IMG/VR virus record: IMGVR_UViG_2690316086_000017
Length of the DNA: 8,108 bases
DNA from: a virus
Lineage: Duplodnaviria > Heunggongvirae > Uroviricota > Caudoviricetes
Reading direction: 5' to 3' (one strand)
The notes under the pieces: model-generated
What the model was told of the DNA's origin: nothing
The model's input: the letters and a program-made list of their open reading frames with translations, nothing else
Databases searched by the model: none
Translations under genes and position numbers: made by a program
Shown: in pieces, positions 1-1,075 of the stretch
Layout: each line of letters starts with the position of its first letter
Numbering within the stretch: position 1 is the first letter of the stretch

Positions 1-927
1 TCAGCTTTTCGCCAGAACGGTGACGGCCTTATCGAGTTTTTGCCATCCGCAATAGGTGATTGCCCTGAACGCTGTAGCGTCATTCTGGAAAAGGCTAACC
101 GTCCCTGATTCGGTTTTTATTACCGCCTCATCAGTTGGGGTTATAACCGTGGCTTCAACGTTAATAATCAGCTTTTGAGCGTCTATCAGCATCATGCGAT
201 CCGCCTGTTCGCTCACAATTACCGGTATTCTCAAAAGCTCTATCTGCCAGAACTCAGCATCAGTAAGCTGTAAGGCGTTTTCTACGGGCAAGATTAGCGA
301 CGACGTGGCAAGCGTGTTACCGTTCGCTATGTGCTTTTTGAAAAGCTCTATGAAGTTTTCGGCCTCATCAGCACCATTAAGCACGCCCTCAGGGGATACG
401 CCCGCCACCTCCTGGTCACTGGAAAGAAATTTTTTATCTATTTCTTTCACCGATTCCGATGTGATCAAGTCTCTGATCGCTGAATTGGTACCAGGGGTGC
501 TAAATTTGATTAGCTCGTTATTCAGCATCACAATAGCGCCAAGTTTGCACAGTTTTAGCGCACTTTCGTTTACTTCTCCCTCTTTGACAGGGATTTCTTC
601 GGCTTCTTTAAGCCATTTACTACCCTTGCCTGATATTGACTGCAATTTTGCGCCAAACGGAAGATTCAGCGCGCTGCTGATTAGCTTGCCTGGTACAGAC
701 TGCGAAAAAATATACTCGCCAAGCTCTCTTACTATCGGCTCTGCCACCAGCGACGGCATATTATCCGTAGTCATTCCGGCAACAATGGATTTTTCAAGAA
801 ATTTCGATACTGCCGGATCATTTTTTTTCGTCATTTCAATTGCGTCTGCATGGCTGAATTTACACGATGTAAGCACGCTGGCGGCGCGAACTGCCGACAC
901 GCCTTTCATGTTTTTAGAAATCATCAT
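1..927 (-). CDS. HK97-fold major capsid protein-like, 308 aa, no N-terminal delta/scaffold domain
   Basis: Full ORF with stop at 1-3 and tandem ATG at 927/924, preceded by AGGAGG (revcomp of 931-939) about 6 nt upstream. The middle and C-terminal segments (ALKLCKLGAIVMLNNELIKFS; IPVIVSEQADRMMLIDAQKL; SLFQNDATAFRAITY) resemble the conserved blocks of HK97-family capsid proteins as I recall them. Not verified by alignment. Confidence 0.55.
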   Translation of the reverse strand: MMISKNMKGVSAVRAASVLTSCKFSHADAIEMTKKNDPAVSKFLEKSIVAGMTTDNMPSLVAEPIVRELGEYIFSQSVPGKLISSALNLPFGAKLQSISGKGSKWLKEAEEIPVKEGEVNESALKLCKLGAIVMLNNELIKFSTPGTNSAIRDLITSESVKEIDKKFLSSDQEVAGVSPEGVLNGADEAENFIELFKKHIANGNTLATSSLILPVENALQLTDAEFWQIELLRIPVIVSEQADRMMLIDAQKLIINVEATVITPTDEAVIKTESGTVSLFQNDATAFRAITYCGWQKLDKAVTVLAKS

Positions 928-1075
928 CTTCTTCCTCCTGGTAACATGGGGTTAGGGTTTCGTGAAAATATGGCATCAGAACAGCGGCAGCCTGTAACCG
1001 TATTTCGGTTGGCTGCTGCTTGTCGTTCATGATTTCCGTGAGTACATCAATAGGGTCTGTGATGTATTCGCTCAT
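914..1075 (-). CDS. hypothetical small protein, 53 aa, acidic C-terminal tail (QEEEDDDF)
   Basis: ATG at 1075 with GAGG about 9 nt upstream; my own translation is MSEYITDPIDVLTEIMNDKQQPTEIRLQAAAVLMPYFHETLTPCYQEEEDDDF. It overlaps the capsid start by 14 nt and contains the capsid RBS. Too short to appear in the supplied ORF track. Confidence 0.3.
   Translation of the reverse strand: MSEYITDPIDVLTEIMNDKQQPTEIRLQAAAVLMPYFHETLTPCYQEEEDDDF

Follow-up and report, generated by a model that had tools for sequence, protein, structure and literature searches.

A small gene adjoining terS in a compact enterobacterial island encodes a relative of the small terminase core hairpin

Gene organization of the island

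The window, by which we mean the whole 8,108-nt stretch of DNA analyzed here (IMG/VR record IMGVR_UViG_2690316086_000017), is a compact island in which all genes are read on the minus strand. Apart from several further small ORFs on that strand, the following features were assigned outside the gene that is the subject of this study:

6867-8108, minus strand: P4-type integrase
6164-6370, minus strand: AlpA-like regulator
3954-4253, minus strand: DUF4222 protein
2557-3957, minus strand: AAA_25 replication protein
1622-1700, minus strand: cos-like block upstream of terS, matching at about 80% identity the HNH-terS spacer of EHEC prophages (O157:H7 and other strains) of the HK97-like kind
1346-1618, strand not assigned: cluster of seven AAGTTAC repeats with 12-nt phasing, candidate TerS recognition sites
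1087-1575, minus strand: island TerS, 162 aa (PF03592, E 4.8e-11; phrog_641, E 6e-44)
1-927, minus strand: capsid homolog, 308 aa (PF05065, E 1.1e-6)

A strong terminator-like hairpin (7 pairs followed by T7) lies at 2157-2174 on the minus strand, 3' of a phrog_1231 gene (2193-2438), and a separate late operon comprising two small ORFs, cos, terS, the small gene described below (mini) and the capsid gene probably begins here. Farther along the island, Rfam recognized a C4 antisense RNA (77.6 bits) and an isrK Hfq-binding RNA (66 bits) at 5166-5253 and 5275-5351, minus strand; a mechanically called 409-aa ORF at 4920-6149 is probably spurious because these two RNAs lie inside it. The equivalent region of a related island (locus L001) carries Icd-like and Ash-family genes in RefSeq, which recalls the c4-icd-ant immunity arrangement of P1/P7.

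The block of terS, the small gene and the capsid gene occurs at an identity of at least 95% in 220 of the 5426 complete genomes of E. coli, and the carriers of the 8-kb island among the matches listed are largely O157, O26, O103 and O111 strains. The island adjoins tRNA-Pro in one strain and sits between cspD and clpS in O157:H7.

A conserved gene between terS and the capsid homolog

The small gene, orf53, and the signals around it comprise the following features:

914-1075, minus strand: orf53 ("mini-TerS"), 53 codons, MSEYITDPIDVLTEIMNDKQQPTEIRLQAAAVLMPYFHETLTPCYQEEEDDDF (ORF list, RefSeq CDS WP_000006073.1, pN/pS, family and hhalign)
1085-1088, minus strand: GAGG, Shine-Dalgarno sequence of orf53, overlapping the terS stop codon (TGA, 1087-1089) and 9 nt before the orf53 ATG (sequence reading)
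962-1057, minus strand: residues 7-38 of orf53, DPIDVLTEIMND..EIRLQAAAVLMPYFH, conserved helix-turn-helix hairpin (AF2, column conservation, phrog_641, NV1 TerS)
917-961, minus strand: residues 39-53 of orf53, tail ETLTPCYQEEEDDDF, net charge -7, disordered with a mean pLDDT of ~53 (AF2)
934-939, minus strand: AGGAGG, Shine-Dalgarno sequence of the capsid gene, inside orf53 codons Q46-E48 (sequence reading)

The first-pass annotation had described a 53-codon ORF between terS and the capsid gene that ends in QEEEDDDF and overlaps the capsid ribosome-binding site and start, and our analysis agrees with it on each of these points; the ORF had been invisible to the ORF track because of a length cut-off and nothing else. 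Chance ORFs of this size are not unusual (94 ORFs of at least 30 aa occur in the window). The conservation of the ORF, which had been proposed as a check of its reality, was found: orf53 is under purifying selection, with a pN/pS of 0.18-0.30 in its own frame against three diverged island variants (91%, 89% and 75% amino-acid identity to orf53), whereas the values are 1.10 and 1.32 in the two alternative frames, which are also interrupted by stop codons. The family extends from Escherichia to Pseudomonas and Paraburkholderia. We conclude that orf53 is a genuine conserved gene; its RefSeq entry, WP_000006073.1, is annotated as a hypothetical protein.

The start of orf53 lies 11 nt past the terS stop. 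A programmed frameshift or readthrough fusing TerS to the small protein was considered and rejected, as the gap between the terS stop and the downstream ATG is 0, 8, 11 or 12 nt depending on the lineage, so that the two genes have no constant frame relation.

Homology of orf53 to the TerS core hairpin

The first protein search with orf53 returned close E. coli relatives and nothing further. An exhaustive profile search yielded 34 clusters at E <=0.001, and a second profile search built from diverged members yielded 188 proteins. The family, here called mini, consists of about 50 of these, with lengths of 48-68 aa, from Escherichia, Pseudomonas, Paraburkholderia, Burkholderia and metagenomes, and is characterized by the motif DPxDFLLxVMND-(5-6)-R(I/L)EAAxALMPYFH followed by a short acidic tail. 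The invariant or nearly invariant columns are D7, P8, L12, M16, N17, R26, A29, A30, L33, M34, P35, Y36 and H38, and core identity between members from Escherichia, Pseudomonas and Paraburkholderia is 40-60%. Neither Pfam, NCBIfam nor PHROG has an entry dedicated to the family, and orf53 has no NCBIfam match.

Several comparisons connect this core with the small terminase. orf53 matches positions 89-126 of 162 in phrog_641 (TerS; E 8e-7), the same PHROG as the neighboring TerS, and this PHROG is matched by 52 of the 52 aligned family members. In hhalign, the mini family scored a probability of 98.5% (E 1.6e-15) against a set of 14 TerS proteins of full length gathered from the examined loci, and it aligned to residues 86-134 of the window TerS. 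Homology between orf53 and TerS is established only at this level of profiles: BLASTP of orf53 against the adjacent TerS gave no match, their direct similarity by Smith-Waterman is weak (score 37, reached by 20 of 2000 shuffles), and Pfam gave no PF03592 match in orf53 even at E 0.1, placing it below the curated family threshold.

The sole PDB sequence match of orf53 is to residues 81-101 of NV1 TerS (E 0.029). In PaP3 TerS, residues 64-105 form the alpha4-alpha5 hairpin of the oligomerization core, with a beta-strand and then an acidic, disordered tail on its C-terminal side (PMC7672466); the matched NV1 segment falls within the alpha4-alpha5 oligomerization hairpin of this homologous protein. 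The AF2 model of orf53, built from the 52-sequence alignment, contains helices at residues 8-16 and 23-36, with 27 residues at a pLDDT of at least 90 and block means of 95 and 97 for residues 11-30. The top Foldseek matches of the model are PaP3/NV1 TerS and a viral TerS, none of them significant for so short a query. The oligomerization-core helical hairpin of TerS is therefore present in orf53 according to hhalign, phrog_641, NV1 TerS and AF2, and the N-terminal HTH DNA-binding domain is absent, 6 residues alone preceding the hairpin. Judged from the profiles and the model, the orf53 product is a small terminase pared down to its core hairpin, lacking the DNA-binding HTH.

The mini profile also draws HEAT-like proteins with 6-9 repeats (P0012, P0014, P0016 and P0025), the motif being a simple helical hairpin. 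The possibility that orf53 is a HEAT-repeat protein was rejected: it is a single hairpin, and its PYFH motif is common to TerS and not to the HEAT-like matches.

Linkage of mini to terS

Seven lineages were examined, namely the E. coli islands, an enterobacterial island (L009), an enterobacterial phage (L007), two Pseudomonas phage groups (L010/L034/L036-40 and L033/L035), a Pseudomonas island (L015/L024) and a Paraburkholderia island (L011), and in all seven the mini gene starts 0-12 nt after terS. Among the examined loci there is no mini gene without terS immediately upstream, and AGGA/GAGG elements overlap the terS stop also in L005, L009 and L011. The gene order in phages is HNH-TerS-mini-TerL-portal, with the capsid gene further on. 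In enterobacterial islands the capsid homolog lies 3' of mini; the Pseudomonas and Paraburkholderia islands (L024, L011) have unrelated genes in that position and the capsid homolog upstream of terS. Three satellite lineages carry the trio of capsid homolog, TerS and mini.

In the Pseudomonas phages, TerS (45-83% identity) and mini (46-74%) diverge together while TerL stays constant (92-96%), which indicates that TerS and mini move as one cassette; such joint divergence is as expected for the DNA-recognition part of the packaging machine. A tblastn search of 50,697 phage genomes with orf53 and a Pseudomonas mini recovered full-length TerS genes only and no stand-alone mini, and a DNA search of E. 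coli genomes found no mini of the L007 type. Prophages of the HK97-like/Stx type in the same E. coli strains show the order HNH-TerS-TerL, with terS overlapping terL, and contain no mini in any frame. Because these close TerS relatives work without it, mini is not a universal terminase subunit.

The idea that TerS proteins accompanied by mini have degenerate hairpins as a result of subfunctionalization was considered; L013 is a counter-example, and most of the mini-less TerS sampled were found via the mini motif itself. The HNH-TerS-mini genes of L006 are identical to those of L007, and after them L006 has tail genes (tail L, I, J) in place of those for TerL, capsid and portal; this arrangement is either a deletion derivative or an assembly chimera.

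The acidic tail and the start of the capsid gene

The segment that follows PYFH has a median length of 12 residues and a median net charge of -5; the charge is -3 or lower in 45 of the 48 members. Full-length TerS paralogs have a basic segment at this position (PYFHxKKGxxGKKE...KF..PP.L). The tail is the least conserved part of orf53 among its close relatives. It is kept where the next gene starts 25 (L010), 106 (L007) or more than 280 nt (L011) downstream; the acidic tail is a conserved feature, and any coupling to the following gene is secondary to the tail itself. A basic tail (VSKEKSRAFRRHPNPS) occurs in the 64-aa mini of four IMG/VR phage contigs (L037-L040), where the ORF, at about 4953-5147 (3970-4164 in L038), extends as far as the start of TerL; set against L036, this tail points to an indel.

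The candidate ATGs of the capsid gene, at 927 and 924, lie inside orf53 codons D50-D52, which gives an overlap of 14 or 11 nt, and the RefSeq capsid start is the equivalent of 924. An overlap of this type is found in three diverged enterobacterial islands, with 11-14 nt in the window, 11 nt in L005 and 8 nt in L009. Translational coupling of the two genes, one of the two roles that the first-pass annotation had put forward for orf53, is plausible because the GA-rich acidic codons double as the Shine-Dalgarno sequence and start of the capsid gene, and this overlap is kept in the three islands.

The same annotation was also right that the capsid gene lacks a scaffold domain. When it is aligned with the 645-aa protease-capsid fusion of the phage (L007, 6570-8507), the island capsid homolog covers residues 291-625 and no more (25% identity, E 2e-21); the product of 1-927 is an HK97-fold capsid homolog without the protease/scaffold part, Ccm-like by analogy with SaPIbov5. 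A protein search with the capsid homolog gave three proteins and a scan of genome contigs with the capsid alignment gave none; the sole diverged relative, L003, lies at a contig end, and its upstream context is lost.

Island TerS, cos-like block and probable helper

The island TerS consists of an N-terminal HTH, a basic linker with KKVT repeats, a hairpin of its own (residues about 88-130) and a basic C-tail. It is 47% identical overall to the TerS of an HK97-like prophage in an island-carrying strain, with the hairpin and tail nearly identical. This hairpin is of a different sequence type (DPIKAMGRIL..KLALDAAFKLAQFTH) and was missed by the mini profile; other E. coli prophage TerS, for example that of L014, carry the mini-like type.

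In HK97-like phages the spacer between HNH and terS is the location of cos. The block at 1622-1700 shares with the prophage spacer the core G8..CGATCGCCCTGGACACCGCCCCC.GTCTCAT.CA.AGAAAA and probably represents a cos region shared with a helper phage. AAGTTAC occurs eight times in the window against 0.74 expected, a count that none of 200 shuffles reached. Three direct and two inverted copies at 1346-1416 lie inside terS, where they encode the KKVT repeats, and two lie upstream at 1600-1618; the helper-like prophage spacer has GTTAAC repeats instead. The AAGTTAC repeats are candidate island-specific binding sites of TerS.

Among sequenced phages, the best matches to the packaging module of L007 (HNH-TerS-TerL-protease/capsid) are Stx1a-, Stx2a- and Stx2c-converting phages. 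Because a related module is found in Stx phages and the listed carriers are largely O157, O26, O103 and O111 strains, the island may be a satellite of phages of the Stx type. The prophage packaging module related to that of the island is represented by L013, L047 and the phage matches H98-H109.

Proposed function of orf53

It is most likely that orf53 acts in DNA packaging and not in capsid building. We propose that, as a partner protein, it assists or modulates TerS during cos packaging of the HNH type and that the satellite has kept it as part of a packaging-redirection module; we hold this sequence-based reading with even confidence. orf53 would be expressed from the same operon as terS through a ribosome-binding site overlapping the terS stop, and would act on the small-terminase complex of HNH-dependent (HK97-like) cos packaging. 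Through the shared hairpin it could dock onto or co-assemble with the cognate TerS, while the acidic tail may contact a basic surface, for example on TerL, on HNH or on the linker or C-tail of TerS. PaP3 TerS offers a precedent in cis, with the core and an acidic tail on one chain (PMC7672466). The redirection module would consist of orf53, the island cos-like site, the AAGTTAC repeats and the island TerS, and would redirect to island DNA the TerL and HNH that a helper prophage of the HK97-like (Stx-type) kind supplies. An accessory partnership, in which the effect would be positive rather than negative, is favored because mini is co-expressed with terS, never occurs without terS, co-varies with TerS and is present in both phages and satellites.

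A rival proposal turns the same hairpin against TerS. The headless hairpin would insert into or cap a rival TerS ring and block DNA recognition or TerL recruitment, so that the cognate TerS wins; the target would be the helper TerS in the case of the satellite, and the TerS of a competitor or of a satellite in the case of the phage. An oligomerization hairpin without a DNA-binding domain is the classic dominant-negative architecture, and the candidate E. coli helper prophages lack mini, so the island brings something that the helper terminase does not need. The other hairpin type of the island TerS could provide immunity; TerS of other E. coli prophages, such as L014, carry the mini-like type. 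Small satellite proteins directed against TerS or TerL reportedly include Gpi. Ppi and Rpp are two further ones (PMC6739421), and the decoy would work as Ppi of SaPIs does. However, the very prophage that resembles the island in its cos-like region and TerS has a hairpin type unlike mini, complete phages carry mini between terS and terL, and no mini has been seen without terS directly upstream. The TerS hairpin of the Pseudomonas phages themselves is mini-like (~50 bits against the mini profile), and a decoy is therefore predicted to poison its own phage there. We regard this explanation as rather unlikely, though it is the main rival.

The other role in the first-pass annotation, that of a capsid-assembly, scaffold or size-determination factor working with the island capsid homolog, did not hold up. 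Although the way in which orf53 runs into the capsid gene in three enterobacterial islands, the missing scaffold/protease part and the trio carried by three satellite lineages would all suit it, mini is homologous to TerS and to no scaffold or size factor; it precedes TerL in phages, where the capsid gene is further on; terS stands between mini and an upstream capsid gene in the islands of Pseudomonas and Paraburkholderia, so that mini and the capsid gene do not adjoin; and mini co-varies with TerS. The role is unsupported because of the TerS-hairpin homology, the constant neighborhood of terS and an acidic tail that is kept without an overlapping gene. Membership among size-determination or scaffold proteins (Sid, CpmB, Ccm or TcaP-like) found no backing in any match to a capsid or scaffold family or in any conserved linkage to the capsid gene, and we consider the role very improbable. 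Hardly credible is the last alternative, a functionless peptide whose ORF just carries ribosomes from terS to the capsid gene and whose acidic tail reflects the GA-rich Shine-Dalgarno sequence and ATG of the latter. AGGAGG and ATGATG do lie inside the tail codons, and the weak conservation of the tail among close relatives would agree with it, but a core that is 40-60% identical across three genera, purifying selection on the ORF and an acidic tail kept with the next gene 25 to more than 280 nt away all contradict it.

The accessory-partner proposal can be extended, with a likelihood that we rate slightly below that of a decoy. In a subset of HNH-dependent cos systems, mini might be a third, hitherto unrecognized component of the packaging-initiation complex, a trans-acting core with an acidic tail that chooses which TerS ring engages TerL/HNH; in EHEC it might give the 8-kb satellite the upper hand over Stx-type prophages in the competition for the terminase of the latter, and thereby modulate the output of Stx phages.

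Comparison with known systems

TerS of the Terminase_2/phrog_641 type, for which structures are solved (PaP3, 6W7T; NV1, 7JOQ; SF6, 3ZQP), shares with orf53 the helical core hairpin and the motif ..MND....R.xAA.. within it. The position in the packaging module is likewise common, orf53 adjoining terS, and, as in orf53, the core of PaP3 TerS precedes an acidic tail that is disordered. orf53 differs from these proteins in lacking an N-terminal HTH, the basic C-terminal segment (GKKE..KF..PP.L) and a clear beta-barrel strand; at 53 aa it has about a third of their length, and it stands alongside a complete TerS instead of replacing one.

The Ppi protein of staphylococcal pathogenicity islands, like orf53, is a small satellite protein encoded in the packaging operon of an island with its own TerS, and it acts by binding a small terminase (PMC6739421). 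No sequence relationship between the two was found, and Ppi is reported in satellites only, whereas mini also occurs in complete phages. Rpp, from E. coli PICIs of the EcCICFT073 type, is a small, packaging-related PICI protein, as proposed for orf53, and redirects helper packaging by binding TerS (PMC6739421). Islands with Rpp encode no TerS and make use of the Nu1-type TerS of lambda/phi80, HK97 being insensitive to Rpp; the orf53 island, in contrast, encodes a Terminase_2 TerS and has cos phages of the HNH type as candidate helpers, and no homology to Rpp was detected. Closer in design are the SaPIbov5-type cos satellites, which have a helper-like cos region, a Ccm-like capsid homolog without a scaffold part and a helper of the HNH-TerS-TerL type (PMC5052747, PMC8569155). 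SaPIbov5 is reported to rely on the cos site and terminase of its helper (bioRxiv 10.1101/2022.09.08.507074), while the orf53 island additionally has its own TerS and mini. In the packaging module of cf-PICIs, mutation of "hypothetical gene 1792" severely reduced PICI transfer.

Small terminases are regarded as homo-oligomeric rings. We found no description of a mini-TerS-like protein in the satellite and terminase literature that we searched, and database entries of the mini family are labeled hypothetical protein or, where fragments are concerned, terminase small subunit; mini is a TerS-derived mini-protein. The known satellite tricks against TerS, Ppi and Rpp, use unrelated proteins, and mini is a paralog of the TerS core. 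A conserved TerS-core paralog that accompanies terS and has no DNA-binding domain would add a new player to packaging initiation, and would be a ready-made probe of TerS ring assembly and TerL recruitment. The function of mini may also bear on Stx-phage production and satellite gene transfer in EHEC, because the cos-like site and TerS of the island resemble those of prophages with the HNH-TerS-TerL module that is also found in Stx-converting phages.

Other contexts of the hairpin motif

The same hairpin motif is found C-terminally in 270-285 aa proteins of Zoogloea (L017-L019; about 4311-5168 in L017), whose N-terminal region has a weak match to AEP-primase (PF22548), a different fusion context for the motif. 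In two other proteins, P0024 (268 aa) and P0035 (188 aa), the hairpin motif occurs twice in tandem behind an N-terminal GRxxGxPNK, and these natural tandem duplications could show how two hairpins pack.
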